64,000 nt of DNA from the NCBI GenBank assembly GCA_025360585.1, contig JANYBW010000054.1, positions 25,847 to 89,846 on the forward strand, given 5' to 3'. The stretch's first letter is position 1. Every line of letters starts with the position of its first letter. The DNA comes from Actinomycetes bacterium. GTDB lineage: Bacteria; Actinomycetota; Acidimicrobiia; IMCC26256; PALSA-610. Shown in pieces: positions 5,822 to 56,166 of the stretch. The notes beneath the pieces were generated by a model. It saw nothing but the letters and a program-made list of their open reading frames with translations, had not been told where the DNA came from and ran no database searches. A program made the translations under genes and the position numbers.

Positions 5822-6411
5822 CCGCTGACGCTGCGACATCCGAAGGCCGCTCGCCCGACGGTATTGCGATTACCCCGATGCGACGACGGCACGAAAAAGC
5901 GGTGTTGACCATCGAACGGTTGGTTAATCCGAAGCCATGGTCGGCGGAGGTGCTGCATAGCGAGCTGGTGCTTCGCGATACGCGGGCCTATTTCGTGGCG
6001 ATGCAGCGCAATGCTGTTGTTGGCTTCGCAGGGCTCATGATGGCCGTCGATGATGGTCACGTGACCAATATTGGAGTACACCCAGCGTTTCAACGTCGAC
6101 ACATCGCGTCGCGCTTGATGATTGTGCTGGCCGAATGCGCAATCGAACGTGGCGCGCATGCGCTCACACTCGAAGTTCGATTGTCGAACACTGCGGCGCA
6201 GGAGCTGTATCGACGTTTTGGCTTTGCTCCGGTTGGTGTGCGCAAGGGCTACTACCAACTCCCCGACGAAGACGCGTTGATCATGTGGTCCCACGATGTC
6301 GATGCTGATGCGTACCGTGAACTTCTCGATGGCCTGCGCCGCCGCTTGGTGAACCCGCTCGAATTTATCGCTGCCTCCGACCGTGTTGTTTCGACGCAAG
6401 ACGGTCTCTGA
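5818..6411 (+). CDS. rimI: ribosomal-protein-alanine N-acetyltransferase (GNAT)
   Basis: GNAT core (VHPAFQRRHIASRLM...LEVRLSNTAAQELYRRFGF). Sits in the conserved slot between tsaB and tsaD. Confidence 0.8.
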   Translation: MTADAATSEGRSPDGIAITPMRRRHEKAVLTIERLVNPKPWSAEVLHSELVLRDTRAYFVAMQRNAVVGFAGLMMAVDDGHVTNIGVHPAFQRRHIASRLMIVLAECAIERGAHALTLEVRLSNTAAQELYRRFGFAPVGVRKGYYQLPDEDALIMWSHDVDADAYRELLDGLRRRLVNPLEFIAASDRVVSTQDGL

Positions 6412-7403
6412 TGTTGGTCCTCGCAGTGGAATCCAGTTGCGACGAAACTGCGGCCGCGATCATCGAGGATGGCACAACGATTCGCAGTTCTGTTGTATCG
6501 AGCCACGTCGAATTGCACGCGCCGTTTGGTGGCGTCGTGCCCGAAATTGCGAGTCGGGCGCATCTCGAACGGATCCAGCCAGTCATTGACGAAGCGCTTG
6601 TTGACGCAGGCGTCTTGCTGGATGCAGTCGACGTCTTTGCCGCAACGCGTGGCCCTGGACTGGTCGGCGCCTTGATCGTTGGAGTAGCGGCAGCGAAGAG
6701 CTTGGCGTTGGTTTACGACAAGCCGTTTGTCGGGGTGAATCATCATGAGGGGCACTTGTTCGCAGCGCGGCTGCAAGCGCCGAATTTGGCGCCGCCGTTC
6801 ATGACCCTGATTGTGTCTGGTGGTCACACCATGATTGTCGCGACTGACGATTGGGGTGCTTACCGAGTGCTGGGACGCACAGTGGACGATGCGGCCGGCG
6901 AAGCATTCGACAAGGTCGCGCGCCACCTCGGGCTTGGGTATCCCGGTGGGCCAATTATCGATGAACTTGCCATGACTGGCGACCCCAAACGGGTGCAGCT
7001 TCCGCGGCCGATGCTCAACGATGGCAGCTACGACTTTTCGTTTTCCGGACTGAAAACGGCCGTGATTCGTTACGTCGCCGAGAATCCGGAAGTTGCAATG
7101 TGCGATGTTGCTGCAGGATTTCAAGCCGCGGCAGTTGAAGTACTGACGACGAAATTGCTGCGAGCAGCGCACCACGAATCTATGGATACGGTCGTGATTG
7201 GTGGCGGCGTGGCCGCGAACTCCGGGCTTCGGTTGCAGGTAGAGCTTGAGAGCGAACAACGCGGGCTGCACTGCGTTGTCCCGGCTCGGGCGCTCTGCAC
7301 GGACAATGCGGCGATGATCGGTGCTGCCGCCGCCGCACAATATGCGCGAAACGGTCAGGATTCATTGGGATTGTCGGTAGCTCCTGGGCTCCGGCTCGGT
7401 TAG
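6411..7403 (+). CDS. tsaD: tRNA N6-adenosine threonylcarbamoyltransferase TsaD
   Basis: LAVESSCDETAAAI N-terminus, HHEGH metal site and SGGHT motif, as in the Kae1/TsaD family. Confidence 0.92.
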   Translation: MLVLAVESSCDETAAAIIEDGTTIRSSVVSSHVELHAPFGGVVPEIASRAHLERIQPVIDEALVDAGVLLDAVDVFAATRGPGLVGALIVGVAAAKSLALVYDKPFVGVNHHEGHLFAARLQAPNLAPPFMTLIVSGGHTMIVATDDWGAYRVLGRTVDDAAGEAFDKVARHLGLGYPGGPIIDELAMTGDPKRVQLPRPMLNDGSYDFSFSGLKTAVIRYVAENPEVAMCDVAAGFQAAAVEVLTTKLLRAAHHESMDTVVIGGGVAANSGLRLQVELESEQRGLHCVVPARALCTDNAAMIGAAAAAQYARNGQDSLGLSVAPGLRLG

Positions 7404-7426
7404 CACTCTGGTGTTGAGAGTGCTAA
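7400..7426 (+). promoter_or_regulatory. CIRCE operator (HrcA binding site) upstream of groES
   Basis: TTAGCACTC-N9-GAGTGCTAA reads exactly as the CIRCE consensus inverted repeat. It overlaps the tsaD stop and lies 78 nt upstream of the groES ATG. Confidence 0.88.
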
Positions 7427-7503
7427 TGTCGGCGTTGCGTACCGCTCGTGCGGTGCCATTTTGTCCACATTCGCAATAACCGCACATCTCTGGAGATGCA
7501 TCG

Positions 7504-7812
7504 ATGAAGCTGCAGCCGTTGGAAGACCGCATCGTCGTCCGCACCGCCGAGGCCGAGGAAAAGACCGCAAGCGGTCTTGTAATCCCCGACACCGCCAAGG
7601 AAAAACCCCAACAGGGTGAAGTTCTGGCCGTGGGCCCCGGTCGTCGTTCGGACCAGACTGGCGAAATCATCCCGCTCGACATCAGCGTGGGCGACACTGT
7701 CGTCTACTCGAAGTACGGCGGCACTGAGATCAGCCACGAGGGTAATGATTACCTGATCCTGAACGCACGCGACGTTCTTGCCAAGATTGGCGCGGGCTCG
7801 AAAAAGAAGTAA
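7504..7812 (+). CDS. groES: co-chaperonin GroES
   Basis: [13 protein letters not shown]...[28 protein letters not shown] is a canonical Cpn10 sequence. Confidence 0.96.
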
Positions 7813-7816
7813 TGCC

Positions 7817-7879
7817 ATCGCGGGTTTCCGCGATATCAGATTTGCAAATGGCGGCCCGCCTGGGCCGCCATTTTCTTTC
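7817..7879 (+). terminator. tandem hairpins forming a rho-independent terminator after groES
   Basis: First hairpin: ATCGCGG-gttt-CCGCGAT (7817-7834). Second hairpin: an 11-bp perfect stem AATGGCGGCCC-gcct-GGGCCGCCATT (7847-7872), followed by TTCTTTC. Confidence 0.75.
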
Positions 7880-7942
7880 AACCGTTGATCAGCTCAGGAC
7901 GTTGGCCCCCACGCCGATGTTCCTTTGGGAGGTCTACGGGAG

Positions 7943-8482
7943 ATGGTGTCAACACCGAAGCATTCGGGGAAGTCCGCGCCGGTTTCGCAGCGGCGACTGT
8001 CTCGACGCCATGACCGTGGTGAATTGCTGCTCGAGCTCTTGATGACGACATCGATCGTCACGGTCTGTGTGATCGGGTTGGTGGGTGCGCTCGGCTCGAA
8101 TTTTCGTTTCAGTGCGGTGAGTCGAGAAATCAACAACGCGGATCAGCTCCTTGGCCGTTATGCAGAAGCGCTGAGTGCAGCCCCGTACGAGACTTGTTCG
8201 GTCAGCAGCGTGCCCTACCAAAAAGTTGGGGTGAGCGCGATTCCGAACAGTTCGTTGCCGAAAGATGTTGCGACAGGAGTTCCCGGAGCAGTTGTTGCCA
8301 ATTCCTTTTCCTTCGCGTTCGCAGTTGATGGAGTCCAGTACTGGAACAACGACGTAGCGCCGGCCACTTTTCGAAGCCAGTGCACTGGGCCCGACACCGG
8401 AATTCAGCAACTCGTACTCTCGGTCAGCGCGGGTGATGGTTCACTCGTGCGGCGAACCACAATCGTGAAGCGCGCACCATGA
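7943..8482 (+). CDS. pilin/pseudopilin-like protein (atypical prepilin-type N-terminus)
   Basis: Basic leader ending ...HDRG, followed by ELLLELLMTTSIVTVCVIGLVGALG (Glu at +5 and a hydrophobic helix). ATG 7943 sits behind GGGAG. The ORF track gives TTG 7925. The stop overlaps the next start. Confidence 0.5.
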   Translation: MVSTPKHSGKSAPVSQRRLSRRHDRGELLLELLMTTSIVTVCVIGLVGALGSNFRFSAVSREINNADQLLGRYAEALSAAPYETCSVSSVPYQKVGVSAIPNSSLPKDVATGVPGAVVANSFSFAFAVDGVQYWNNDVAPATFRSQCTGPDTGIQQLVLSVSAGDGSLVRRTTIVKRAP

Positions 8483-9048
8483 AACCGTTGGCATCGATCA
8501 GCCGATTTCTGACTGCACGGAAACACTGCGACAGTCGGCAATCCGATCAACACGGGATGACGCTCGTTGAAATGATCATCAGCATCAGCATGCTGACCGT
8601 GATCACGGTGCCGCTGACGAGCGCGGCGATGATGTTCGCGCAGCACGGTGCCGACGTCGACAAAAGTTTGAGCGACGACACGACAGTGCGCAGTATTGAG
8701 GCGAGTTTTGTAGCCGATGTGCAAAGCGCCACTTCGGTCGTTCTGAACGATGCTGCGGGTTGTGCCGGCACAACGGCCGCGATTGCAACCTTGCAATGGG
8801 GCGAGCCGGGCTTGCAAATACGAACGTCCTGGTACGCCGAAACTATCGCGGGAACCCTCACAATGGTCAGGCGGCGTTGTTCGAACGGCAGTTTGGTTTC
8901 GTACGAACGAGTCGGTGAAGTTGCATCGGCCCCGACCGTGGTGTGTGCGGTGACGTGCACGACGGATCGATTGACGTCGGTAACGATGACAGGCACCGCG
9001 ACCAATGGTGCGATCTTTGCGTTCACTGGAAACCGCAGGTCGCTATGA
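8479..9048 (+). CDS. prepilin-type N-terminal cleavage/methylation domain protein (minor pilin-like)
   Basis: Leader ...SDQHG, then MTLVEMIISISMLTVITVPL. This is the classic G|(F/M)TLxE motif followed by a hydrophobic helix. Confidence 0.65.
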   Translation: MKPLASISRFLTARKHCDSRQSDQHGMTLVEMIISISMLTVITVPLTSAAMMFAQHGADVDKSLSDDTTVRSIEASFVADVQSATSVVLNDAAGCAGTTAAIATLQWGEPGLQIRTSWYAETIAGTLTMVRRRCSNGSLVSYERVGEVASAPTVVCAVTCTTDRLTSVTMTGTATNGAIFAFTGNRRSL

Positions 9049-9557
9049 AGCAGTGGATTCTAAATCGCGTCGCTACTGGTCACAGTCGGCGCGGCCAGCC
9101 GCGCGACCAGCGCGGCGCCTCACTCATTTTGGCGTTGATGTTTACGACTTCGATCGCGTTCATGCTCGGAGTTTCCCTCGATTTCGCGGCGGCCTCATTT
9201 GGGCAGTCGAATGCTTCAACGAGTCTGCGCAATGGCCAGCACGCGGCTGAAGGCGCGATTCACATCATGATTCATTCGATGCGTCGCGATATCACGATTG
9301 GGCGCGAGGGCTTGACCTGTTCGTCGGTGACCCTTGCTGTTGGTGATGGCCGCACCGTGACAACCGCGTGCGTACCAGAGCCGGGAAGCGGCGCTTTGCT
9401 CAACCAAGGCTCGGGCGCGTATGCGAATCGTGCCGTGGCGATGACCAGTTCGATCGCTGGAGTTACCTATATCCGCGCCCGTGTCCTGTTCAACGACGCC
9501 GGCGGCGCGCAACCCGGCAAGCTTGTGCAAATCGTCGAGTGGAGCAACGCGATATGA
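9045..9557 (+). CDS. TadG/TadE-like pilus-assembly (pseudopilin-like) protein
   Basis: Leader ...RDQRG, then ASLILALMFTTSIAFMLGVSLDFAAASF, which resembles the Tad N-terminal segment. ATG 9045 overlaps the upstream stop (ATGA). Confidence 0.45.
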   Translation: MKQWILNRVATGHSRRGQPRDQRGASLILALMFTTSIAFMLGVSLDFAAASFGQSNASTSLRNGQHAAEGAIHIMIHSMRRDITIGREGLTCSSVTLAVGDGRTVTTACVPEPGSGALLNQGSGAYANRAVAMTSSIAGVTYIRARVLFNDAGGAQPGKLVQIVEWSNAI

Positions 9558-10642
9558 AGCGGGCCGACAAATTGGGTTTCACGCTCGTGGAACTCTTGCT
9601 CACAATTTCGATTATGGGGATCTTGGGTGCCGTCGTGGTTTATGGCGCGGGTGATTTTGGCACCGCGAGCGGTTGCAAAACCGACGCGAAACTGCTTCGT
9701 TCTGCTGAAGCATCGTTTTACGTCGCCAATGGGCGTTACGGCACCCAGCCCGAGCTGGTGACCTTCGGCGCGTTGCGTACGCCATCACAGCTGCACGACG
9801 TACAAGTAGCTGGCCTGAATTTCACCGTGACGGAGCTCGGAAAATGTCAGAACTCTGGGACGGCCGACGCTGCAACAATTCCAACCGTGATCGTGACTTC
9901 GCAACAGGGTGCCACCGCGTTCGCAACCGGTAGCGATGGCACACCAATTCCAGGCGTTGCATTTTCGACGAGTCCCTCGGGTGCAGGTTCGTGGACTGTC
10001 GCGGGAACCAGCGACGTCACCGGTACCGCAAAATTGAATGTGGCCGCGGCGACGTATGACATTGCCGCGACCTACCTGGGTGCGACTAATCGCTTGCTTG
10101 GCGTAGCCATCAAAAACGGAACGTTGGCGGTATTTCCAGTGGTGACTGCAACGACGCAATTTCGAAGTTCCGCGCTCGCGCCGATGGCAGGAGCGACCTT
10201 CGAAGTGCGTCAGGCTGGTACGACTTCGTGGAACATCATTGGCACTACCGACATCTCGGGCAATGTCATTGCGAAGCTTCTCCCCGCCGACTACGACATT
10301 CGGGTCACGTGGAATGGTGTCACGACAACCCGCCAAGCGATCCAAATCAAACAAGATGGCGATGTCCTGTTTCGCACAACGGTGCTCGCCACCAAGGTCA
10401 TGGACTCCAGTGGTGCCGCGATCTCCAAAGCTTCGGTCACCATCACTGCGGTCGGCATTGCGAATTCGGCAGTCGCCTTGACGACCGATGCGACGGGGTG
10501 GGCCCGTACTGAAGTGCTCCCCGGTAGCTATGACGACGCGGTTCGCTATATGCCGGCAGGTTCGAGCGTCGCGAACACCGCGACCATGAACGCGGTCCCG
10601 GTGGGCGCGACCACTGTCAACGTTGAAATCAGGGTGGCGTAA
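9554..10642 (+). CDS. type IV pilin-like protein with three beta-sandwich (CarboxypepD_reg-like) repeats
   Basis: Short leader MKRADKLG, then FTLVELLLTISIMGILGAVVVYG (canonical). Three modules follow with the pattern TD.(S/T)G.....L.P..YD. ATG 9554 overlaps the upstream stop (ATGA). Confidence 0.7.
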   Translation: MKRADKLGFTLVELLLTISIMGILGAVVVYGAGDFGTASGCKTDAKLLRSAEASFYVANGRYGTQPELVTFGALRTPSQLHDVQVAGLNFTVTELGKCQNSGTADAATIPTVIVTSQQGATAFATGSDGTPIPGVAFSTSPSGAGSWTVAGTSDVTGTAKLNVAAATYDIAATYLGATNRLLGVAIKNGTLAVFPVVTATTQFRSSALAPMAGATFEVRQAGTTSWNIIGTTDISGNVIAKLLPADYDIRVTWNGVTTTRQAIQIKQDGDVLFRTTVLATKVMDSSGAAISKASVTITAVGIANSAVALTTDATGWARTEVLPGSYDDAVRYMPAGSSVANTATMNAVPVGATTVNVEIRVA

Positions 10643-10643
10643 G

Positions 10644-13600
10644 GTGAAACGGTCGATTGTTCAACAGTTCTTGGCCGTATCCATCGTTGTGGGATCGGCG
10701 CTTGCGGCGACGTTGGTTCCTTCGCAACCCGCTTCCGGCGCCCCTGCCTATTCGACCCTGGTCGCGGCAGTGACTCCGTTAACATCCGGCACGGCTCCGT
10801 TCGATCTTGCCGCGAACTGTTCTCCCGCGCTGCAAGTCGGCGTGAGCGATGTCATTCCCGTGTCCGCGAATGTGACTGGTCAATCCCATTGCCCCAGCAT
10901 GGACATGAGCGGCGATCCAACCGTCGATCGAATCGTGCGGACCATGGACACGATCGATATACGTATCAATTGGTCGATCAGCAACGTGCCGGCGACCAGT
11001 GGGTATTCGATCGGTGGCGTGAACGCGGATACGAATGTCGTTGTGCAGTCGACGCTGCCGCTCGGCACGCAAGGATTGCCAGCTGCGGTTTGGCTTGCGA
11101 TTCCAACGGGGTGCTACACCTCATCGACCGGAACCCCCGCGGTGACGCCGTTGTCGAGCGTTAGTAACTCAAGCCGAACGCTGACGTGCAATTTGGGTCA
11201 TCGATCAACTGGCTCAATCGGCAATATCACCGCGACGCTCCAGACGCGCGGTAACGCGGGCGACGGTCAACAGTTGGACATCATCGCGACGATGTACTCC
11301 GCGACGACCAAGGCCGCCGTGGTGCCTGATGCCGCAAGCGCGCCGCAAACGTTTTGGAGCTCGGCCGCTCCGCGATACAATCTGAAGCTCGATTCGGCGA
11401 CGATGCAATCCAAATTCCCGGTGTACGGTCCGGCGCACGAATTGGGCCGGCTCATGATTTTGGGTGCGGTCGTGCCGTCGGCACGAGGTCAAGAAACCTT
11501 GTTGGCCAGTTCATGGGCCGGCGGGAATTCAGTACCGACCGGTACACCGCTCAGCCTTGATATCGATATGTCTGCGTTCAGTTCCGTCGCCGCGGCGGAT
11601 GGAAATGGCACCATCGGTGGTCGATCGGTGCTCTACACGTGGGGACGATCCGGCAACGGTTGCGGTTCCGCAGGTGGCGCGTCGGCCGCGCCAAACGCTG
11701 CACCGCTGCTGAATGACTTTTACTGGGGGGTGACAGGGGCCGGTGGCTCAAACGCGAAAGTGAAATGTGCGCAAGTGGGCGGAGCTGGGGGCAATATTCA
11801 TATCGATGCCTTCGGTGCGGACTCGTCGCTCTCTGGCGCGCCACCAGCGATCTGGGGAGGCTGGGTCGCGATTTGGATTCCGGTCGCGGCGATCCCGGCA
11901 ACCCCTCCTTCGGTACTGGCACGGGTCTCGCACTTCGATCCGCAATCGATGCCGAGTGCGAACTTTCCAAACGGTCAATCGAATTTCGGTGGATCAGGAG
12001 AATTGTGTTCACTCGTCGCCGTTGGTGGAAACAACCCTGTCAATTGTGAACCGGGGCTTGTCATTAGCGCCTCGCAGACCGCGCACACGGCCGCAAACGA
12101 CAACGAAGGCTATGGAAGCGTCGTGCTGGCGGCGGCTTCGAGCAGCCAAACTGGGATGTTCCTGTTGGATCAAGACGTTCGCGCCGGAAGCAACGTTGGT
12201 GTTTTGGCGACTGAACCCACGAGTCCCGGCACGACCGGTATCAGCTACGGCCATGGTTATAGCGATTCAAATTTGCAAGTTCGATCCGGAGAGACATTCC
12301 TTTCGTCCGTCAGCATCGGTAACAACGGTGGTGGCGTCAACAGCGCCGCAGCAACGTGCAATAAGTGGGACAACCGAACGCTGACGTTGACCGATTTCGG
12401 TGACCTGACGAATCCTGTGGCTGCAACCCAAGGCAACCCCTCATACACAGCGAGCACGTGGGCGGTCGTGAACACCAGCGGCACCTTGCCCGATGTCTGG
12501 CATCCGAAAAACGGTTGGAATCGAAGCGCGCCATTTAACGTAACGACGCCCCATAACTTGCAGGCCGACCCCGCGTATTACGCGCTGGAGTTTGGAGCCG
12601 GTGAATACGATCCGTACACTCCGGCTCCGACCGCGCCCGCTCAACTCGCAATGCGCAACGCAACTTGTCGGAATCAGGATTCCCCAGCTGGTTGGTTCAC
12701 GAATCCGTTGGACCCAGCGATCCAAGCCTGGATCGACGCAACCTATGGCGCTGGATCAGGTATCGCTCCCAAAGATGTGGTGAACAAAGCGCGAATTCGG
12801 TTACTCGACCCGCTTGGCCCCGATTCCTATGTCGATATGGCCGTGCGGTTGACGGCTCGTTCGACGTTTGGTCCGACGGCACCGATGCCCCTGAAGAACA
12901 CTGCGATCCCATACGGCACCCGACTTGCCGCGCAGGGCGCGTACACCGACTCGATTCTTGCCTCGCGTTCTGGTGCTCAATACATCAACGGTTGGTGGGT
13001 CGGAACCTACGACCCTGGGACCGACGGCGGAGCCGTCGGGGATCGCATGTCACTCAGTGGACTCGACACTCGTGAGCGCGTGTACTCGCTGTGGAACAGT
13101 CCGGTGGGGTTGAACGGAACGCCAACGGTGATCGCTGGTCAAGATGTTTGGTGGAGGGTCGACACGACGGCGTTTTCGTTGATCCAACGATTGCCCGCTG
13201 GACAGCCTGCATATCCGTTGCGCTCGGTCACCGTCGTTCCTGCATCATTGACGTATGTTCCGGGAACTGGCTGCAAAATCGCTCCGACGTATGTGCCGAC
13301 CACACCCTGTGCGACCCGGATGGATCCTGCATCGGTAATTGCGAACGCAGACGGCACGACGACATTGGTCTGGGACATCGGAAATGTCGTTGCGACGAAT
13401 GCGGGTCTGATGGTGTCGGTGATCTTCCGGACGACCACAGACCCACTCACGAACTCAGGAACGCTCGCGGCCGTGCAGTCGTTGAGCGAATCAGTGAACT
13501 CGAATGGCACGAGCAACGATCGCTATCCCGCGTGCCAAAACGCCACAGTCGCTAGGACCAATCGAGCTATCCCAATCACAGGGTACGGCCCAGCGGAAAC

Positions 13601-47158: not shown

Positions 47159-48181
47159 GTGGCTCGGGATTTAGCGATCGATTTGGGCACCGCGAACACG
47201 CTGGTCTTCGCGCGGAACCAGGGCATCGTCTTGAACGAACCAACAGTCATCGCGCTCAACAGTCGTACCCAAGAAGTGTTGGCGATGGGTCAAGACGCTT
47301 GGCAGATGATTGGTCGTACTCCTGGCTATATCGTCGCGGTTCGACCATTGCGCGGCGGCGCGATCACTGATTTCGACATTACGCAGCGCATGATCCGATT
47401 GTTGTTTCAGCGCGTCGGTGTGCATCGTTTCCATCGAGCGCGAGTTTTGATATGTGTGCCTTCCGCAATTACCGCGGTGGAGCAGCGCGCGGTCCGCGAC
47501 GCGGCTCGGGCCGCAGGTGCCGCCGAGACCAACCTGTTGCCGCAACCTATGGCCGCCGCGATCGGCGCGTCTTTACCGATCCACGAACCAATGGGCAACA
47601 TGGTCATCGACATCGGCGGTGGCACCACCGAAGTCGCCGTGATCTCGCTCGGTGGCATTGTGGCGCTCGAAGCCGTACGAGTAGGTAGTTTCGATATCGA
47701 CGCGGCAATTCAGGCCTATGTTCGCAGGGAATACGGCATCGCAATCGGTGAACGCACTGCTGAAGAAATCAAGCTCGCGATCGGTTCTGCGTATCCAGTC
47801 GCCGAAGAATGGAAAGCTGAAGTTCGGGGCCGCGACCTCATGAGCGGCCTACCGAAAACGGTGATGCTCGCTCCGGTCGAAGTGCGCGGTGCGATCGAGG
47901 AACAAGTCCGCGCGATCTGCGATGCGGTCGTCGCATGCCTGGCTCGCACACCACCGGAACTTGCCCAAGACCTGATCGCGAACGGTATTCATCTTGTGGG
48001 CGGCGGCGGCATGCTCAAAGGGCTCGACAAACGAGTGGCGGAAGAAACGAAATTGCCCGTTCACCTTGTCGATGCTCCGCTTGAGTGTGTCGTGCTCGGT
48101 GCCGGGCGTTGCCTCGCCAACTTCGATTCACTGCGCGACATGTTCATTACCCGCAACGCCGATCAACGCAGCAGCAGATAA
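47159..48181 (+). CDS. mreB: rod-shape-determining actin homolog MreB
   Basis: DLAIDLGTANTLVF, DIGGGTTEVAVISLGG and GIHLVGGGGMLKGLD match the MreB/actin phosphate and adenosine motifs. Confidence 0.92.
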   Translation: MARDLAIDLGTANTLVFARNQGIVLNEPTVIALNSRTQEVLAMGQDAWQMIGRTPGYIVAVRPLRGGAITDFDITQRMIRLLFQRVGVHRFHRARVLICVPSAITAVEQRAVRDAARAAGAAETNLLPQPMAAAIGASLPIHEPMGNMVIDIGGGTTEVAVISLGGIVALEAVRVGSFDIDAAIQAYVRREYGIAIGERTAEEIKLAIGSAYPVAEEWKAEVRGRDLMSGLPKTVMLAPVEVRGAIEEQVRAICDAVVACLARTPPELAQDLIANGIHLVGGGGMLKGLDKRVAEETKLPVHLVDAPLECVVLGAGRCLANFDSLRDMFITRNADQRSSR

Positions 48182-48215: not shown

Positions 48216-48986
48216 TCAGCGGTCGTCGGAGAGATCCTCGGCCGCTTGGCGTACCTGCCAATCACTGTCGGTGAGCGCTTTGGATACGGCCGCGTCCACT
48301 TCAGGTCCGTAGTAGTTCGCGAGCGCGAGGACGGCGCGCCGGCGCACTGCAGGTTTGTCTTGGCAGGCAGCGAGAATGATCGGCAGCGACGTTTCGTGGC
48401 CGATCGAACCGAGCGCGGCAACGGCGGCTTCGCGTACTAACGCGTCGGCATGGTGTTCAGCAATTGCCTCCAACTCCCCGGCGATGCTCGCACTTTCATT
48501 GTGTAGCGCCGCGTCGGCTGGTTCATTGTGTAGCGCCGTGTCGGCACTTTCATTGCATAGCGCCGTTTCGGCGGGGAGTGCCGGTTCTCCCGTGGAGTCC
48601 CCGCCCCGTTCGCCGAGGGCGAAACATGCCGCTTCGGCCACGTAGCCATTGTCATCGTGGGCCAACGAAAAGAGTTCGTCGGCGGCGAGTGTGGCGGAGA
48701 TCTTCGGTGCCAAGCGGGCTGCGGCGAGCCGGACCGGTGGTTCGGGGTCTCCTGCGGCCCGGCGCCAGAGATTCGTGGCCTTCGCCGGGCTGGCTTTGCG
48801 AATTGCTGCGCTGAGCGCCGCGGCCCGGGCCGCCGGTTCGGGGTCGTCGATCACCATGGCTGCGATGGTCGCGAGCGTTCCTGCCGGCCAGCGTTGGGAA
48901 ATTTGGCCCAAGATCGTTGCCGCCGTGGCTCGGGTGCGGGGATTGGGCGATGTGAGGTCCGCGACTGCCTCGTGCACCAATGCCAT
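48216..48986 (-). CDS. HEAT-repeat protein
   Basis: Repeated D(P/S)..VR.AA..ALG helices (NPRTRATAATILG, DPEPAARAAAL, DALVREAAVAALG, DKPAVRRRAVLAL, DSDWQVRQAA). Start taken at MALVHEA (48986). Confidence 0.65.
   Translation of the reverse strand: MALVHEAVADLTSPNPRTRATAATILGQISQRWPAGTLATIAAMVIDDPEPAARAAALSAAIRKASPAKATNLWRRAAGDPEPPVRLAAARLAPKISATLAADELFSLAHDDNGYVAEAACFALGERGGDSTGEPALPAETALCNESADTALHNEPADAALHNESASIAGELEAIAEHHADALVREAAVAALGSIGHETSLPIILAACQDKPAVRRRAVLALANYYGPEVDAAVSKALTDSDWQVRQAAEDLSDDR
48491..48571. repeat. 3 x 27-bp in-frame tandem repeat inside the HEAT-repeat gene
   Basis: c(a/t)(c/g)(t/g)ttcattg(t/c)(g/a)tagcgccg(c/t)(g/t)tcgg occurs three times. It encodes ...TALCNESAD/TALHNEPAD/AALHNESAS. 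Confidence 0.85.
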
Positions 48987-49030
48987 TAGGAGAATCCTAC
49001 AAGGTGGGCTGATGTGTCCGATAGGACAGC

Positions 49031-49792
49031 ATGAAGCGGGCCGGAGTAGCACGAGCCGTCGCGAGCGCCGTTGTCGGTCTGCTCGCGACGGCTTCGCTGA
49101 TTCAGGCCTCAAGCCCCGATTCGTTGCCGGCATTCGGCCGCGCCCAGCGGAAGAATCGCCCGGTCAGTTCAGTTGCAGCAGTAGCGCCCCTCACAACGGC
49201 TGCGATTGGCGCTGCCGGTGGGTCAAGTGAAAAGAGCACCGTCTCGGTGCCCGCGTCGATGCCCACGACTGCGGTTCCCACGATGCCTACCAGTCGTCGT
49301 AAGAAGATGCGCCAAGCGGATCCGCAAGCGAATCGCGAAGTGTTGATCCCGGCTGAGGTACCCGGATCGAACTTCTCGGTTCCGTTGGTTGCCCATGATC
49401 GAATGATCATCGCGAAATTGGGCCTCGATCGCCCCGTATTCGAGGGCATTGCGCAAAACGTCATCGATGCTGGAGTGGCCCATTGGCCCGGCACCGCGAC
49501 CCCTGGCGGTATCGGCAATGTCGTCATCGCTGGTCATCGCAGTACGTACTCGAGGCCGTTCCACGACATCGCGAAGTTGGCGGCTGGAGACACGATTGTT
49601 TTCGAAACCGAGACTCACTGGCGCTACACCTACACAGTCGAGCGTCAGTTCGTGGTTTCGCAAAATGCGTTGTGGATTAGCGATCAGACTGCTGGTCGCC
49701 ACGTAACGATCTTTACGTGTCATCCGATCGGCTCTTCGCGCCAGCGGCTCGTGACTGTGGGTGTTCTTACGAAAACGCAACGGCTCCGCTAG
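49031..49792 (+). CDS. sortase (actinobacterial class E/F-like)
   Basis: Signal/anchor MKRAGVARAVASAVVGLLATASL. Catalytic His (VVIAGHRSTY), Cys (VTIFTCHP) and Arg (RLVTVG) are present. Confidence 0.8.
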   Translation: MKRAGVARAVASAVVGLLATASLIQASSPDSLPAFGRAQRKNRPVSSVAAVAPLTTAAIGAAGGSSEKSTVSVPASMPTTAVPTMPTSRRKKMRQADPQANREVLIPAEVPGSNFSVPLVAHDRMIIAKLGLDRPVFEGIAQNVIDAGVAHWPGTATPGGIGNVVIAGHRSTYSRPFHDIAKLAAGDTIVFETETHWRYTYTVERQFVVSQNALWISDQTAGRHVTIFTCHPIGSSRQRLVTVGVLTKTQRLR

Positions 49793-49870: not shown

Positions 49871-50992
49871 GTGACTGACCCGCCGGATGTTCTCGTGCCG
49901 GAATTTGTTCACGATGCTGAAGACGGTCGGTCCACCGTCACGCGGGTTTTGCGCGGAATCGGCATTGCGGCATTGCTGGCGTTGATTGGCGTGGTGATTT
50001 GGGGGTTTGTGTATCACCCTGGATACGACGAGGTAATCCCCGGTTCAACCCAGCCGATCCCGGCCAAAATTTCAGTTACTGGCGTGAAGCAATTCTCGCC
50101 AAAAGGCAACTTCTATTTGGTGTTTGTGCGTGAGCGGACCGATGTGAACTACTGGGAATACGTGCGCGCGCAATGGTTTGACGATCACGCCCAAATCAAC
50201 AAGATCGAAAAGGGCGCGCCGGCCCCGGTGCCCCATCAGGATTTTTGTTTCATGCAGGATTCTCAGGCCACCGCGAAACAAGTGGCCCTACGTAAACTCG
50301 GCTACAAACTGAACGTGAAGCCGGGTGTGTTGATCGTTGGGATCAGTGAAGCGAACACGCCAGTTTCCAAAGTCCTGACCTGTGGCGACACGATTCGTTC
50401 GGTCGCGGGCGTGAAAACCGATTCCCAAAAAGAACTCAGCGCCGTCATTGGCCAGCATCGTCCAGGCGATGCGGTCGAGGTTGTGTTCGATCGCGCCGCG
50501 AAGCAACAAACCCAACGGATCCGCCTGATCCGCGATCGCGAAGGCAAAACTCGATTGGGAGTCCTGGCCACACCGACCGTGCAATATCCATTTCAGCTTT
50601 CGATCGATACGGGCGAAATCGGTGGTCCCTCAGCGGGGCTCGCGATGACACTGACGTTGCTCGACGAACTCACCCCCGGTGAACTCACTGGGAATCAAAA
50701 AGTTGCCGCTACGGGCACGATCGAACCCGACGGAACCGTCGGCGAAATTGGCGCGATCGATTTGAAAGCAATCGCGGTACAACAACGACACGCCAAAATA
50801 TTCCTGGTGCCGGCTTGTCAAGAAGACCCCAAGCAATACCCCAAAGAGCTCGCGAGTTGCCAAGAGGGAATTCGGCTGGCTCGCAAGAACGCGCCAAGTG
50901 TTTTGGTGATTCCGGTGCGCAATCTCGACGATGCGTTGCGAGCACTGCGCGAGCACGGTGGCGAACCGTTGCCCGCAATCGCGAGCAAATAG
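49871..50992 (+). CDS. PDZ-domain protein with a Lon-protease (S16) C-terminal domain
   Basis: N-terminal transmembrane helix, a PDZ domain (GDTIRSVAGV), and Lon_C with GPSAGLAMTLTLLDEL and a Lys region ATGTI...G.VG.IG. Adjacent to a UPF0182 gene, as in mycobacteria. Confidence 0.8.
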   Translation: MTDPPDVLVPEFVHDAEDGRSTVTRVLRGIGIAALLALIGVVIWGFVYHPGYDEVIPGSTQPIPAKISVTGVKQFSPKGNFYLVFVRERTDVNYWEYVRAQWFDDHAQINKIEKGAPAPVPHQDFCFMQDSQATAKQVALRKLGYKLNVKPGVLIVGISEANTPVSKVLTCGDTIRSVAGVKTDSQKELSAVIGQHRPGDAVEVVFDRAAKQQTQRIRLIRDREGKTRLGVLATPTVQYPFQLSIDTGEIGGPSAGLAMTLTLLDELTPGELTGNQKVAATGTIEPDGTVGEIGAIDLKAIAVQQRHAKIFLVPACQEDPKQYPKELASCQEGIRLARKNAPSVLVIPVRNLDDALRALREHGGEPLPAIASK

Positions 50993-51089: not shown

Positions 51090-53036
51090 ATGGAAGACGA
51101 AGTTCGTACGGCCGTGCCCAGTGCGCCGCGGCTCGCCCCTGAAGACATCGCCACCCGTTCGTTTTCAAATTCGTTTCGCGGATTGTCGGAGTCTGAGGTT
51201 CGGAGTTTCCTGAAACGCATCGCCGAAGAGATGACATCGGCGCAGATTCGGGAACGCGAGTTACGCGAATCGCTGACGGCCTCGGAAGTACGCGCCAATC
51301 ATCGTGAGCCCCTCGACGAATCGCAGCTCCTTGAAGCACTCGGTGAAGAAACGGCCAAGCTCCTGCGATCGGCCCGCGAGGCTGCAAACGACATTCGCAC
51401 AAAGGCCGAAGTGAACGGGACACGGACGCGCGCGGAAGCTACAGAAGCGGCTGCGGCGGTTCGTGAAGAAGCCGCGAACTTGTTGGATACGCGCCGGGCG
51501 GAAGCTGATCGTGAAATCGCTGAACTGCGCGCCCGAATCGACGCAGAACTCACGGCCCAGCGCGCCGAAGCCGAAGCTGCGACCGTGTTGCTCCAGACCA
51601 ATGCCGCCGCCAATTCCGAACGAGTTCTTGAACAGGCGAAGGTCACCGGCCGGTCCATGGTGGAAGAAGCCAAAGCCCTACGCGACCGTGTACTTGCGGA
51701 TCTTGGCCATCGCCGAGGCTTGCTGCAGTCACAAATCACTGAGTTGAAGACCGGTCGTGAACAGTTGCTCGATGCCTACCGCATCGTCAAGCGAACGTTT
51801 CTTGAAGCAACCGAAGCACTTGGGCAAGCCGAATCGCGTGCATCGCAGAGCCGTCCGCCGAGTGTTGGCGATGTTGAAATCGCCGCGGCCTACGACGCCG
51901 CGATTGTTGACGACGCGGCTGTGGAGCTCGGCGCACATCTCCACGCAGAAGACGTGTTGGATCCGGACGTCGTGGCAGCGCCGGATGCAGAAATCTCCGA
52001 CGCAGACGCAACTGAGCTTGCTCTTACCTCGAGCGCGTTGGATTCGGTCATTGGCGAACTGCCGACTGGCGGTGATCTACCGCAAGGCGTTGCGACGAGC
52101 TCAGTCGAGGGCGCGGGCGAAGAAGGCTCGGAAGCAGTTGATTCGCCTTCTGCGTCAGAAATCCCCGAAGTAGAAGATCTTTTTGCTCGTATCCGTGCAC
52201 AGTCCGCGGCCCGCGATTCGGGCACCGCCGTTGCTGAGCCAGCGCCGCCGGAGGTTGCGCCGCCGGAGGTTGCGCCCGCAAGCGATGCCCTCGTATCAGA
52301 GACTGTGGTCTCGGGCTCGCACTCCGGTGTCGTTGCCGATGTCGCAGGCTCAGCAGCGAACACAACGACCGGCGACGAGGCAGGCGCGGCGCCGGCTGAG
52401 GTTGAAGAAATCAACTCCGCAATTGCGGTGGTATTGACGCCAACAGTGCGCGAAACTGTGAGCGCGTTGGTGTCGTCGGTCATCAAAAAAGCAAAGCGGA
52501 CGTCCCAAGACGAGCAAAACGAACTGCTCGACGCGATTCGGCGGCAAAAGCGGCGCGCGGTCGCGGCTGAAGTATTGCCGCAGTCCGAAGAACAGACTGG
52601 AATCTGGGCGGTCGCGTTGGCCTCGTCGGTCGGAGCGGCGTTCTCCGCGAGCTCGGCTGACGAGTCGTTGATGCCCGAATCGTTGGGTCGCGAAGTCGCT
52701 CGTGATCTGATCGCTGGCTTGCGGGCTCGCCTCGTTGATGCGATCGATAACGGTGACATCGAAGGCATGAGTGATCGCGTGAACGCGCGCTTTCGCGAAT
52801 GGAAAACCCAAGATCTCGAAGACTTGCTCCACGATGCGCTGCATGCGAGTTTCGTTTCCGGACAATTCGCCGCGGTGGCGAGCGGAACCGAACTCCGGTG
52901 GGTCATGAGCGAGGTGTGTTGTGCAGATTGTGCCGATAACGCACTCGAATTGGTGTTGAAAGGTGCGGAGTTTCCGACGGGTCACGTGCTGCCGCCAGCT
53001 CATGGCGGGTGTCGTTGCGTGCTTGAACCCGCGTAA
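51090..53036 (+). CDS. DivIVA-domain protein with a long coiled-coil/acidic region and a Cys-rich MuF-like C-terminus
   Basis: DivIVA motif LAPEDIATRSFSNSFRGLSESEVRSFLKRIAEE. The C-terminus reads CCADCADN...GAEFPTGHVLPPAHGGCRCVLEP. ATG 51090 chosen inside ORF 50931-53036. Confidence 0.75.
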   Translation: MEDEVRTAVPSAPRLAPEDIATRSFSNSFRGLSESEVRSFLKRIAEEMTSAQIRERELRESLTASEVRANHREPLDESQLLEALGEETAKLLRSAREAANDIRTKAEVNGTRTRAEATEAAAAVREEAANLLDTRRAEADREIAELRARIDAELTAQRAEAEAATVLLQTNAAANSERVLEQAKVTGRSMVEEAKALRDRVLADLGHRRGLLQSQITELKTGREQLLDAYRIVKRTFLEATEALGQAESRASQSRPPSVGDVEIAAAYDAAIVDDAAVELGAHLHAEDVLDPDVVAAPDAEISDADATELALTSSALDSVIGELPTGGDLPQGVATSSVEGAGEEGSEAVDSPSASEIPEVEDLFARIRAQSAARDSGTAVAEPAPPEVAPPEVAPASDALVSETVVSGSHSGVVADVAGSAANTTTGDEAGAAPAEVEEINSAIAVVLTPTVRETVSALVSSVIKKAKRTSQDEQNELLDAIRRQKRRAVAAEVLPQSEEQTGIWAVALASSVGAAFSASSADESLMPESLGREVARDLIAGLRARLVDAIDNGDIEGMSDRVNARFREWKTQDLEDLLHDALHASFVSGQFAAVASGTELRWVMSEVCCADCADNALELVLKGAEFPTGHVLPPAHGGCRCVLEPA

Positions 53037-53076: not shown

Positions 53077-56000
53077 GTGGCTGGCTGGCGCACCTACGAT
53101 CGGTCTATGCACGTACCCCCTTTGAGTGAAGAGATCCGACCACGGCGACGTTATGGGCCGCGAGTTTTGCTCGGGATTGTGGTTGCGGTGCTGTTTGTTT
53201 TGTTTGCCAGCGCGAAGGCGCTCGCCGGGTTTTACACCGACAAACTCTGGTTCGATGATCTTGGTTTTGGCAAGGTCTTCAGCACGCTCATCTGGGCGCG
53301 AATCGCGCCGGCAGTGATCTTTAGCTTCGTGATGTTTGTGGTGTTACTCGTCAATTTGGTACTTGCGGGCCGGTTGGCGCCTGAGTATCGAACTGCGGGA
53401 GTAGAAGACGAAGTCATTGATCGTTACGTCGGGTACGTCACTCCGTACATGGGTCGAGTGCGAGTTTTGGTTTCGTTGGCGATCGGTGCGCTGGTTGGTT
53501 TCGGCGCGTCATCGCAGTGGCGTGAGTGGATCATGTACCAGAATCGCGTTACCTGGGGTATCAAAGACGCGCAGTTCCATAAAGACATCGGCTTTTATGT
53601 CTTTGAGTTGCCGTTTTTGAAGTTCATCGCCGAGTGGTCGTTCGTGGTGTTCTTCGTATCGTTGTTCATCACTGCTGTGTTTCATTACATCAACGGAGGG
53701 ATTCGCGTTCAGGCAGGATTCCAGCGGGTGACTCCGCAAGTGAAAGCCCACCTTTCGGTGCTACTTGCTGCGATGGCGATCACCAAGACCGCGCAGTATT
53801 GGTTGGGTCGCTACGACTTGGTGTATTCACACCGCGGCAAAGTCGATGGCGCAACGTTCACGGATATTCATGCGCAACTTCCCGCGCTGGAGTTCCTTGC
53901 GCTCATTTCCGTGGTTGGTGCGATCCTCTTCGTGGTCAATATTTGGCGGCGAGGCTGGACGCTGCCAATTATCGCGGCGGGCTTGTGGGCCTTTATCTCG
54001 ATCATCGTTGGCACGGCGTATCCCGCCTGGATGCAACGGTTCCAAGTGCAACCGGCCGAGCAGAGTAAGGAACAGCCGTATATCGAGCGCAATATCGCGG
54101 CCACGAGAGCCGCGTACGGTCTCGATAAATTTGGGGTGCAGATCTACAAGGGAAACGGGAAACTCGACGCGCAGGCGGTAAAGGAATCGAGCGCGGCCAA
54201 GACGCTGAGCAACGTTCGCTTGTGGGATCCAGACGCCTTGCAGACCGCCATCGCGAAGCAAAATGTTAAGGGCTATTACCAGCTCGGCGTTCCGTCGATT
54301 GACCGTTACACCGTCGGCGCGGTGAATAAGCAGCTCGCGATGGTTTCGGTGCGCGGATTGAACTCGGCGGAGTTACCTTCCGATACCTGGACGAACCGTC
54401 ACCTCGCGTACACGCACGGCCAAGCCGCCGTTGTGGTCCAAGCCAACGCGACCTCGGTTTCCGCATCCCAGGACCCGAGCTACCTGGTATCGGGAATCCC
54501 CGCGGCGGGCGAAACCGACATCAAAATCAGCCAACCGGATGTGTACTACGCGCCATCCATGTCGGATTACGTCATTGGGGCGACGAAAGAAAAAGAAGTG
54601 GAGGTCGACGGCTCGGGCAACGAAGCTCGCGATCAGTACCGCGATACAAAACGCGGAATTTCGCTATCAAGCTTGCTGCGCAAAGCCGCGTTTGCAACTC
54701 GGTTCAGCGATTTCAATTTGTTGATTTCCGATCGTTTGCAATCGCAGTCAAAGATGTTGTTCGTACGGGATCCTGCGGAGCGCGTGCGGAAAGCCGCGCC
54801 GTTCCTTTCGACGGATTCTGAGGCCTATCCGGTTGTGTTGCCCGATGGCACCATGCAATGGGTAGTTGATGCCTATACGTCCACGGACAAGTACCCGTAC
54901 AGCCAAGAAATTCGTCCCGGCGATGTGAGCGGTCAGCAAATTGCTGGTAATTACAACTACGCCCGCAACTCGGTGAAAGCCGTAGTGGATGCCTACAACG
55001 GTTCGGTGTCGCTGTACATCGTGGATCCAACTGATCCGCTAATTCGGGCCTACAGCAAGGCGTTTCCTTCGTTGTTTCAGCCTGCGTCCGCGATGCCGAA
55101 CGGGTTGGCGGAGCACTTGCGCGCACCGACCGATCTCTTCAAAGCGCAAATGCGGATGTTGGAGCAATATCACGTGTTACCGACCCAGGCTGGCGCGTTT
55201 TACGGCGGGACGCAACGCTGGAGAATCGCTCCGCAACCATCAGTCGGAACGTCCGGAACCGCCGATACCACGCCAACAACGTCTGCGTCTGCTGGCAATG
55301 ACGGAGGGCGCAACGGCCAAAACCAAAACGACAGTCAGCGCGTCGAGCCGCAGTACCAAATGTTGCAACTGCCCGATGGCACCCAACAAGAGTTTGTGCT
55401 GACCACTTCATTTGTGCCCGCGAGCAAAAACGACACATCGCCGAACATTCTCAGTGCGTTCGTCGCTGCTCGCAACGACGGGTTCGGAACGTCGAACTTC
55501 GGTAGGACGACGGTGTTCGACTCCAGTTCCGGATCCGGATTGAGCTCGGAAGTGTTTGCGGCTGCCCAAATTCAAAAAGATACGCTTATTTCGCAACGAA
55601 TATCGCTGCTTGGTCAAGGAGGATCCTCGATCACGCCCGGTGCCGTCCAGCTCTTGCCCATTGGCGATTCGATTCTTTACGCGCAGCCGTTCTTTATCAA
55701 TAGCGATAACAAAGGCGCTGTCCCCGGACTTGCATTTGTAGCCCTCGACGACGGTAAGCGGGCGGTGTTCGCAAACTCGGTTGCCGAGGCGTTGAAGCTG
55801 TTGTACGGCGACACGGTGGCACCACCTGACAATGGCAACGGCGGCCCGCCCGCGACCATCACCGATGCCGAACGGTTGAAAAAGATCAAGGCCGCGCTCG
55901 ACGAATACCAAAGCAAGACGAAGTCGGGCGAGTTCGAAGCTGCCGGCAAGGCGTTAAGGACCCTCGGCGATTTGGTCAACGGGGTGACGACCCCAACGAG

Positions 56001-56166
56001 CACGACCCCAACGACGCCAACCCCGGGCACCGCGACCACAACCAACCCACGGAGCAATGGCTCAGGGAGCGGCACTCCAACGCCCGGCAGCGCGGGCGGG
56101 TCCCCGCCGACCACGATGTCGCCGACGCCATCGGGCTCGACGACCACGACAATTCCTGGAACCTGA
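53077..56166 (+). CDS. UPF0182-family large membrane protein
   Basis: FYTDKLWFDDLGFGKVF after the first transmembrane segment, about 7 N-terminal transmembrane helices and a large extracytoplasmic domain. The tail is Thr/Pro-rich. An alternative ATG lies at 53107. Confidence 0.85.
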   Translation: MAGWRTYDRSMHVPPLSEEIRPRRRYGPRVLLGIVVAVLFVLFASAKALAGFYTDKLWFDDLGFGKVFSTLIWARIAPAVIFSFVMFVVLLVNLVLAGRLAPEYRTAGVEDEVIDRYVGYVTPYMGRVRVLVSLAIGALVGFGASSQWREWIMYQNRVTWGIKDAQFHKDIGFYVFELPFLKFIAEWSFVVFFVSLFITAVFHYINGGIRVQAGFQRVTPQVKAHLSVLLAAMAITKTAQYWLGRYDLVYSHRGKVDGATFTDIHAQLPALEFLALISVVGAILFVVNIWRRGWTLPIIAAGLWAFISIIVGTAYPAWMQRFQVQPAEQSKEQPYIERNIAATRAAYGLDKFGVQIYKGNGKLDAQAVKESSAAKTLSNVRLWDPDALQTAIAKQNVKGYYQLGVPSIDRYTVGAVNKQLAMVSVRGLNSAELPSDTWTNRHLAYTHGQAAVVVQANATSVSASQDPSYLVSGIPAAGETDIKISQPDVYYAPSMSDYVIGATKEKEVEVDGSGNEARDQYRDTKRGISLSSLLRKAAFATRFSDFNLLISDRLQSQSKMLFVRDPAERVRKAAPFLSTDSEAYPVVLPDGTMQWVVDAYTSTDKYPYSQEIRPGDVSGQQIAGNYNYARNSVKAVVDAYNGSVSLYIVDPTDPLIRAYSKAFPSLFQPASAMPNGLAEHLRAPTDLFKAQMRMLEQYHVLPTQAGAFYGGTQRWRIAPQPSVGTSGTADTTPTTSASAGNDGGRNGQNQNDSQRVEPQYQMLQLPDGTQQEFVLTTSFVPASKNDTSPNILSAFVAARNDGFGTSNFGRTTVFDSSSGSGLSSEVFAAAQIQKDTLISQRISLLGQGGSSITPGAVQLLPIGDSILYAQPFFINSDNKGAVPGLAFVALDDGKRAVFANSVAEALKLLYGDTVAPPDNGNGGPPATITDAERLKKIKAALDEYQSKTKSGEFEAAGKALRTLGDLVNGVTTPTSTTPTTPTPGTATTTNPRSNGSGSGTPTPGSAGGSPPTTMSPTPSGSTTTTIPGT

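Follow-up and report, generated by a model that had tools for sequence, protein, structure and literature searches.

Why would a bacterial chromosome join a DivIVA domain to a C-terminus that recalls the head proteins of phages? The question is raised by a gene at positions 51090-53036 of the + strand in a 64,000-nucleotide stretch of contig JANYBW010000054.1 from a member of the Acidimicrobiia (the whole stretch is hereafter called the window), where it lies between the genes for a PDZ-Lon protease and a UPF0182 membrane protein. An earlier note on this DNA had reported a standard N-terminal DivIVA domain followed by a coiled coil, a likeness of the Cys-rich C-terminus to the minor head proteins of the Phage_Mu_F (PF04233) and SPP1 gp7 type, and an architecture that it did not recognise. 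Our analysis indicates that the protein very probably combines DivIVA with a divergent MuF-like module and belongs to a conserved cellular family. The best explanation as a whole, to which we assign a probability of about 0.6, is a three-part DivIVA-MuF-like protein that acts as an adaptor for the neighbouring envelope quality-control machinery.

The open reading frame (ORF) is complete, encoding 648 amino acids (aa) and a stop; its translation matches the letters quoted earlier, and an identical protein is already on record on an NCBI contig of 129 kb. The ATG at 51090 is favoured as the start because 57 full-length orthologs align from residue 1 with an occupancy of 0.99; an upstream ATG at 50931 was rejected, since a gene starting there would overlap the last part of PDZ-Lon, and the orthologs line up from about the first residue encoded at 51090. 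The conservation map of the 57 orthologs and the full-length AlphaFold model agree on the layout, which is given below (pI, isoelectric point; pLDDT, predicted local distance difference test; bp, base pairs):

51090..53036, + strand: the whole gene, encoding the DivIVA head, coiled coil, acidic linker and MuF-like module (ORF, ortholog alignment)
51135..51494, + strand: DivIVA domain, residues 16-135, with the head motif F25-x4-R30-G31...E-x-E-V37-R38-x-F-L41 (PF05103, TIGR03544)
51318..51851, + strand: a single long helix or coiled-coil stalk, residues 77-254 (full-length AlphaFold model)
51852..52391, + strand: acidic disordered linker, residues 255-434, pI 4.05 (pLDDT, conservation, charge)
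52170..52199, + strand: short linear motif V-E-D-L-F-A-R-I-R-A, residues 361-370 (ortholog conservation, AlphaFold)
52242..52276, + strand: 15-bp tandem repeat, 2.3 copies, encoding APPEV-APPEV-AP (exact repeat)
52392..53033, + strand: MuF-like module, residues 435-648 (AlphaFold, Foldseek, family profile)
52767..53033, + strand: core with sequence homology to PF04233 MuF proteins, residues 560-648 (hhalign, BLASTP)
52899..53018, + strand: putative metal-binding knuckle, W604 to C643 (ligand conservation in 224 domains)

No transmembrane segment is present and the protein is acidic throughout (pI 4.8 for the module and 4.7 for the knuckle); the gene product is a soluble, acidic, cytoplasmic protein in three parts, namely a DivIVA head with its stalk, a linker and the MuF-like module.

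The relationship of the module to MuF proteins emerges from profile-profile comparison with hhalign. A profile of 224 family domains matched eleven CxxC-type MuFs with a probability of 97.6% (E = 4.3e-12) over 92 columns, corresponding to residues 560-648, while the family matched five actinophage MuFs with a probability of 96.5% (E = 7.7e-10, 72 columns) and a mixed set of SPP1 gp7, Mu F, ValentiniPuff gp6 and Wentworth gp12 with a probability of 93.5% (E = 2.3e-7, 35 columns); reversed alignments, used as the null, stayed below 1% with E ~ 0.1. The core comprises an A-R-F-R-E-W helix, the W604 strand, C611-x2-C614, F628-P-T-G and P635-P-A-H638-G-G-C641-R-C643, and the C-terminal string quoted in the earlier note (WVMSEVCCADCADNALELVLKGAEFPTGHVLPPAHGGCRCVLEPA) is indeed present in the translation. 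The MuF C-terminal signature W...(D-x-R-T-R-x-x-H or C-x-x-C)...G/F...P-P-x-H-x-x-C-R-C occurs in the window protein, is conserved across the 224 domains and aligns with that of genuine MuFs. The CxxC-type MuFs, represented by gp6 of Microbacterium phage ValentiniPuff, gp12 of Streptomyces phage Wentworth and a protein of viral contig L089, have in common with the family the motif set W...C-x-x-C...F-P-(T/N)-G...P-P-x-H-P-x-C-R-C, and they also resemble the family in a preceding A-R-Y-R-(E/D) helix and a predicted helical bundle with a small knuckle.

Pairwise comparisons gave a concordant picture. The MuF of viral contig L089 (5215-6309) scores 39.7 bits against PF04233, above the cutoff, and its gene lies directly downstream of a Mu-type portal gene (PF06074, E = 1e-35) and upstream of that for an ADP-ribosyltransferase protein; the window module matches this MuF by BLASTP (E = 6e-9, with 35% identity across 71 aa), and so does the family profile in hhalign (probability 96.8%, E = 2.7e-10). 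Among 2.9 million viral contigs scanned, there were also 365-aa phage proteins with the pattern ...P-C-D-V-C...F-P-T-G-H-x-M-P-P-A-H-P-H-C-R-C.... When the module was searched by tblastn against 50,697 phage records, 19 weak matches were obtained, every one of them in a head-assembly gene (MuF-like or minor capsid, capsid maturation protease, portal) or in an unnamed gene at the equivalent position in related phages; the PHROGs matches of the C-terminus were likewise weak (E = 0.006-0.3), and nearly all belonged to head-and-packaging families. Among 67 family members, PF04233 was the only recurrent Pfam match besides DivIVA, with 10 of the 67 matching below threshold at E <= 0.1 (best P0072, E = 1.2e-5, 26.4 bits, profile positions 32-111 of 112).

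The predicted fold points in the same direction. Residues 441-648, modelled alone by AlphaFold with 67 homologs, gave a pLDDT of 94.4 and a predicted template modelling score (pTM) of 0.89, and the model has long helices that form a bundle and, after them, a small beta-rich knuckle with the Cys/His residues. Foldseek searches of this model against BFVD returned named top matches that were nearly all MuF-type (probability ~1.0, query template modelling score 0.5-0.72, ~245 columns), among them known fusions of MuF to zeta toxin, ADP-ribosyltransferase, portal and protease, with predicted models on both sides of the comparison. The module thus shows profile-profile and pairwise homology to proteins that pass the PF04233 cutoff, and it was by profile-profile homology that Jamet et al. 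2017 (PMC5576092), whose MuF1 corresponds to PF04233, added MuF3 and MuF4 to the superfamily. We conclude that, in the sense of Jamet et al., the module belongs to the MuF superfamily as a divergent member, though not to PF04233 by the Pfam cutoff, and that among MuFs it comes closest to the CxxC type of actinobacteriophages. The MuF likeness proposed in the earlier note therefore stands, except that the homologous unit is a folded module of ~210 aa rather than the last 45 residues.

Conservation of the Cys/His knuckle was assessed in the 224 family domains, where C611 was retained in 211, C614 in 169, H638 in 219, C641 in 223 and C643 in 223. Four of the Cys/His positions in the tail (C611, H638, C641 and C643) are accordingly 94-99.6% conserved, but of the other two of its five Cys, C614 is so only in part (75%) and C610 is unconserved (5 of 67). 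The ligand combinations were CCHCC in 157 domains, CAHCC in 53, SCHCC in 6 and others in 8, and at least four candidate metal ligands were kept in 217 of the 224. Judged from sequence, this pattern would fit a structural zinc site of Cys3-His (or Cys4) type in which one Cys is redundant. A search of Jamet et al. 2017 (PMC5576092) for zinc and cysteine found mention of neither. The earlier note had named, as what would speak against its proposal, the lack of any profile match together with an unconserved Cys/His pattern; we looked at both and found a profile match and a largely conserved pattern.

The N-terminal half matches known models. PF05103 matches residues 16-135 in the Pfam scan (E = 6.4e-12, 46 bits against a cutoff of 28) and TIGR03544 matches residues 15-48 in the NCBIfam scan (28.5 bits against a cutoff of 22), and the AlphaFold helix at 77-254, with a pLDDT above 90 over most of its length, supplies the coiled coil; the DivIVA domain and coiled coil reported earlier are both confirmed, and the protein shows the domain above curated cutoffs followed by a coiled coil that characterises the DivIVA family. 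Residues F25, G31, V37, R38 and L41 are invariant in 58 of 58 sequences (the window protein and its 57 orthologs). The loop tip is F29-R30 in the window protein, and across the 58 sequences position 29 is F in 31, K in 11 and R in 9, while position 30 is R in 51 and K in 5, the equivalence to B. subtilis DivIVA having been set by aligning the motif by eye. In work of 2010, Oliva et al. are said to have identified F17/R18 of B. subtilis DivIVA as the hydrophobic and basic loop-tip pair for membrane binding. The protein was also compared with the equivalog model of Wag31, the canonical actinobacterial DivIVA (NF050102), and at 20.1 bits against a cutoff of 260 it is a DivIVA-domain paralog, not Wag31. 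DivIVA, Wag31, GpsB and SepIVA have in common with it the N-terminal DivIVA domain, with its F-x4-R-G...E-V-R-x-F-L head, and the coiled coil that follows, and the logic of GpsB, a membrane-binding head of DivIVA type joined to a different client-binding part, is the same. Unlike the Wag31/GpsB/SepIVA group, the window gene stands outside any division gene cluster, and its protein has an acidic linker of 180 aa and a MuF-like module of 210 aa, neither of which occurs in Wag31, GpsB or SepIVA.

Between head and module, the stalk contains a second conserved block at residues 181-245 (conservation 0.69-0.72 for 181-240 among the 57 orthologs), and the linker (255-434) has a pLDDT below 50 over most of its length and low conservation and occupancy. 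The earlier note had described about 250 aa of acidic low-complexity sequence here; the linker is indeed acidic and disordered, but it spans only ~180 aa and is followed by the folded ~210-aa module (pLDDT above 90). Within it lies a motif with the family consensus V-D-x-L-F-A-R-(L/I)-R-A, of which F365 is kept in 44 of 46 sequences and R369 in 41 of 46, and which AlphaFold predicts as an isolated helix at 360-376 (pLDDT ~82). This LFARLR motif forms the extreme N-terminus of the homologs that have no DivIVA part, and we take it to bear a loose resemblance to the FtsZ C-terminal peptide D-V-D-V-P-x-F-(L/M)-R-R. The repeat reported for the linker (APPEVAPPEVAP) is present and is encoded by the exact 15-bp, 2.3-copy tandem repeat at 52242-52276; this run (GCGCCGCCGGAGGTT, with its APPEV repeats) is a likely site of length variation from strain to strain.

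The family proved to be large. A word-indexed search with the module found 89 proteins, and an exhaustive profile search found 3,972 representatives at E <= 1e-3, about 2,000 of them between E = 1e-10 and 1e-3, and at least 1,236 clusters (50% identity) at E <= 1e-30. At least 420 matches came from species-representative genomes, and the best 80 of these were nearly all metagenome-assembled genomes (MAGs) of Acidimicrobiia. The sources name the proteins 'DivIVA domain-containing protein' or 'hypothetical protein', and the module carries no annotation in Pfam or NCBIfam. No full-length member was found among the 2.9 million viral contigs, and the family is under purifying selection. Our literature searches returned no prior description of DivIVA with MuF or of DivIVA in Acidimicrobiia, and the mentions of PF04233 that they did return concern phages or prophages only; the architecture that the earlier note did not recognise is thus undescribed in the literature searched, but it is no singleton, being that of a class-wide family of Acidimicrobiia.

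Its members differ in their N-termini. In 57 loci the DivIVA domain, coiled coil and module lie in a single ORF, while about seven loci (L001, L026, L045, L052, L056, L063 and L076) encode short forms of 321-476 aa; at these the PDZ-Lon gene ends directly before the short ORF, which leaves no room for DivIVA. Since it is the LFARLR motif that opens the short forms, what stays constant in the family is the unit of motif, linker and MuF-like module, and DivIVA with its coiled coil is an N-terminal addition in most, but not all, members. At seven further loci from MFD long-read MAGs (L009, L014, L018, L048, L051, L057 and L075), the DivIVA part and the module are contiguous but are read in different frames or fall into separate ORFs; the most likely cause is frameshift errors in the long-read assemblies, not a real splitting of the gene.

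The genomic setting was examined in a sample of 81 loci. The neighbours of the gene in the window that enter the argument are as follows (Pfam models in brackets):

47159-48181, + strand: full-length MreB (PF06723, E = 2.7e-128), 3 kb upstream of the DivIVA-MuF-like gene
49031-49792, + strand: sortase (PF04203)
49871..50992, + strand: membrane-anchored PDZ-Lon (S16) protease (PF13180 and PF05362), 97 bp upstream
53077..56166, + strand: UPF0182 polytopic membrane protein (PF03699, E = 3.6e-233), 40 bp downstream

A UPF0182 gene follows the family gene in 81 of 81 loci and a PDZ-Lon gene directly precedes it in 72, the remainder consisting of eight loci that end at a contig edge and one without a detectable match; a sortase gene stands further upstream in about 30. 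Together with the Pfam matches, these counts bear out the PDZ-Lon/UPF0182 neighbourhood that the earlier note had named. No terminator-like site was found on the + strand between the PDZ-Lon, DivIVA-MuF-like and UPF0182 genes, and the gaps of 97 and 40 bp, taken with this absence, are consistent with co-transcription. Elsewhere the flanks in the window hold an HtrA-like protease, MreB, a HEAT-repeat protein and SufB/D/C. The neighbourhood in the window contains no portal, terminase, capsid or toxin gene, the company of the gene (sortase, PDZ-Lon, UPF0182, MreB, Suf) is not that of a phage or prophage head module, and the GC content is even across the region; PADLOC defence-system models matched neither the gene nor its operon neighbours. 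The gene is chromosomal and not prophage-borne.

The two flanking genes also form, with order and orientation unchanged, the PDZ-Lon/UPF0182 pair of Actinobacteria, in which UPF0182 is MSMEG1959. In M. tuberculosis the pair is presumably Rv3194c/Rv3193c, and we take the mycobacterial genes to be directly adjacent, whereas the Acidimicrobiia loci examined have an extra gene, that of the DivIVA-MuF-like family, between them. UPF0182 has recently been tied to FtsH/YccA membrane-protein quality control (bioRxiv 10.1101/2025.11.14.688347). The contrast with phage MuFs is equally marked. Phage muf genes lie just downstream of the portal gene, whereas the family gene lies between PDZ-Lon and UPF0182 on the chromosome, at a locus without a portal for the module to bind; and in phage MuFs the extensions (toxins, proteases) are C-terminal, whereas in the family the MuF-like part is itself C-terminal and DivIVA N-terminal. 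About 96% of bacterial muf genes reside in prophages or prophage remnants, and 85-96% of muf genes stand next to portal or terminase genes (PMC5576092). The family thereby breaks three known rules of muf genes, namely prophage association, portal adjacency and the C-terminal placement of extra domains.

Several features of the window and of the comparison phage were noted in passing. The host would carry morphogenetic scaffolds of both MreB and DivIVA type, a combination that is unusual in Actinomycetota, many of which do without MreB-guided wall growth. The HEAT-repeat ORF (48216-49133, - strand) and the sortase ORF are divergent, and their 5' ends as listed overlap by ~100 bp; a Met further downstream (~MALVHEAV...) is probably the start of the HEAT protein, which makes the overlap a likely artefact of choosing the longest ORF. 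The same HEAT protein weakly matched the PADLOC HEAT-ARM model (E = 1e-7), which the repeats alone probably explain. The last ~180 aa of UPF0182 (window 55600-56166) form a low-complexity tail rich in Pro, Thr, Ser and Gly, with the Pfam domain ending at about residue 845 of 1029. At 13490-13582 (- strand), ARAGORN called a tRNA-Thr(TGT) of 93 nucleotides, far above the normal class I length, which may reflect an insertion, an intron or a mis-call. The head module of L089 (IMG/VR IMGVR_UViG_3300042355_000243, 3719-10923) consists of the Mu-type portal, the CxxC-type MuF, a 781-aa protein with an ADP-ribosyltransferase domain and, after it, a protein whose catalytic core is that of a eukaryotic-type topoisomerase IB (PF01028, E = 1e-16); these may be virion-packaged effectors.

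How would a chromosomal protein of this build work? Our tentative suggestion is a DivIVA-tethered, MuF-like docking adaptor for the PDZ-Lon/UPF0182 system. The DivIVA head would tether the protein at poles or septa, on the cytoplasmic side of curved membrane, and the Cys3-His set (C611, H638, C641 and C643, with C614 spare) would hold a structural zinc that stabilises the knuckle. SPP1 gp7 reaches the procapsid through a strong interaction with the portal oligomer (PMC6316719), and phages use MuF as a carrier of fused cargo (PMC5576092; PMC5512222); because gp7 binds the portal oligomer, the module may by analogy be a protein-docking adaptor that acts on a cellular partner instead of a portal. 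The synteny suggests that this partner would belong to the PDZ-Lon/UPF0182 system, and the protein could position or regulate PDZ-Lon, UPF0182 and possibly the UPF0182-linked FtsH system. A bolder version strikes us as doubtful: that a MuF domain was co-opted by a whole bacterial class and docks on a ring- or dome-shaped UPF0182, FtsH or PDZ-Lon machine at poles or septa, or that the cellular family is instead the ancestor of the phage MuFs.

A number of results weigh against the adaptor explanation, both in its MuF component and in its function. The check proposed by the earlier note, a hmmscan with PF04233, failed to match at E <= 10 on the whole protein, on its last 178 aa and on its last 88 aa, the NCBIfam scan of the same three segments left the C-terminus without a match, and no family member reaches the PF04233 gathering cutoff (29.6 bits). 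An SPP1-like-only profile gave nothing significant in hhalign, so that the link to MuF runs through the CxxC subtype and not the SPP1 subtype; the single SPP1 gp7 sequence likewise gave an insignificant E = 0.075. The MuF A-R-T-E motif, located in the helix before the Trp strand, has no conserved counterpart in the family, the phage columns being aligned by hhalign with non-conserved family columns that read L-L-H-D-A in the window protein; the invariant A-R-Y-R-E of the family was considered as its equivalent and rejected, as it aligns with the phage A-R-Y-R-D one helix turn earlier. Sequence-level homology is confined to the last ~90 residues, with the helical part linked by fold similarity alone (Foldseek E = 1e-4 to 1e-2). 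Against the PDB, Foldseek with the module model returned only generic helical bundles (best E = 0.36) and no recognisable MuF structure, and a sequence search of PDB chains returned only antibody light chains and other noise. The assignment of function draws wholly on synteny and analogy. Finally, the catalytic part of PDZ-Lon and the large domain of UPF0182 are typically extracytoplasmic, and a cytoplasmic protein would reach only tails and loops or a third partner.

The main rival in our ranking, which we nonetheless judge unlikely, is that the protein serves division or growth as a polar or septal recruitment hub and works independently of its neighbours, the LFARLR motif and the module recruiting division or elongation proteins much as GpsB, Wag31 and SepIVA recruit theirs. 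It is established that members of the DivIVA family can carry alternative client domains at the C-terminus, as GpsB does, and the strong constraint on the DivIVA head, a conserved linear motif in a disordered linker of the kind typical of recruitment hubs and the nearby MreB gene would all suit such a role. It accounts poorly for the fact that the constant part of the family is the MuF-like module and not DivIVA, with the DivIVA-less short forms holding the same position, and for a gene that is fixed between PDZ-Lon and UPF0182 in essentially every locus, outside the dcw cluster.

Alternatively, the protein might be a pole-anchored tether for DNA or the nucleoid, in which the module binds DNA and DivIVA fixes it at the pole, comparable to RacA-DivIVA or ParB-Wag31. 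DivIVA proteins anchor chromosome origins in other bacteria, and SPP1 gp7 is described as DNA-binding in the part of PMC6316719 that cites Stiege et al. 2003. Because the module is acidic (pI 4.8, with 33 Asp and Glu against 21 Lys and Arg), as are the knuckle and the linker, this possibility is disfavoured; no par or segregation genes lie nearby in the window, and the synteny points to envelope proteins, which together make a DNA tether very unlikely.

Slightly less probable still is that the module is an unrelated helical domain that acquired or happens to share the short metal-binding motif PPxHxxCRC. Such convergence or chance would explain why PF04233 gives no direct match, why the strongest sequence signal is concentrated in the knuckle and why A-R-T-E is absent, and helical bundles are known to give many weak Foldseek matches. 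However, the hhalign alignment (E = 4e-12) runs for its 92 columns past the Cys/His motif into the preceding helix, where A-R-Y-R-E meets the phage A-R-Y-R-D, at a significance that the reversed controls (E only ~0.1) do not approach; Foldseek, which found noise in the PDB, matched MuF-type models almost exclusively among viral proteins and aligned them over the whole module; and the tblastn matches fell only in head-assembly genes or in unnamed genes at the equivalent position. Pure convergence is disfavoured because of the 92-column alignment and the fold matches.

A decaying prophage remnant or a MuF polymorphic-toxin delivery gene, as the prophage residence of some 96% of bacterial muf genes would suggest, is scarcely credible and is excluded by the synteny, because the same three-gene order recurs in 72 of 81 loci from different species, all but one of those that reach far enough upstream; the lack of phage head and toxin genes nearby, the uniform GC content, the size and purifying selection of a family with no full-length member in the viral contigs, and a MuF-like part that is C-terminal and without toxin extension all argue against it as well.

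The DivIVA-MuF-like protein as an adaptor for envelope quality control remains the explanation that we prefer, and its interest lies in what is known of its parts. MuF is among the commonest head proteins of tailed phages, occurring in about one third of those sequenced and often fused to toxins, yet its biochemical function is described as unknown, and muf genes in bacteria are taken as markers of prophages; in the present case, a large MuF-like family is a core chromosomal gene, usually fused to DivIVA. PDZ-Lon and UPF0182, in turn, are actinobacterial envelope proteins whose connection to the FtsH-dependent quality control of membrane proteins is only now being made. That a non-viral MuF homolog should occur class-wide in a PDZ-Lon/UPF0182 operon is unexpected, although the parts of the protein are familiar and we infer its function. 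If the adaptor reading is true, the family would provide a cellular model for MuF function, a candidate cytoplasmic organiser of the PDZ-Lon/UPF0182 system in Acidimicrobiia and a clear example of domains exchanged between the virion proteins of phages and the cytoskeletal scaffolds of their hosts; it would also call for a correction of annotation, in that the ~210-aa module merits a model of its own and PF04233-like matches in Acidimicrobiia would not be evidence of a prophage. Should the MuF domain have been co-opted by the class, or the cellular family be the ancestor of phage MuFs, this protein would offer the first non-viral, genetically tractable handle on the MuF fold and the missing cytoplasmic partner for UPF0182 and PDZ-Lon.

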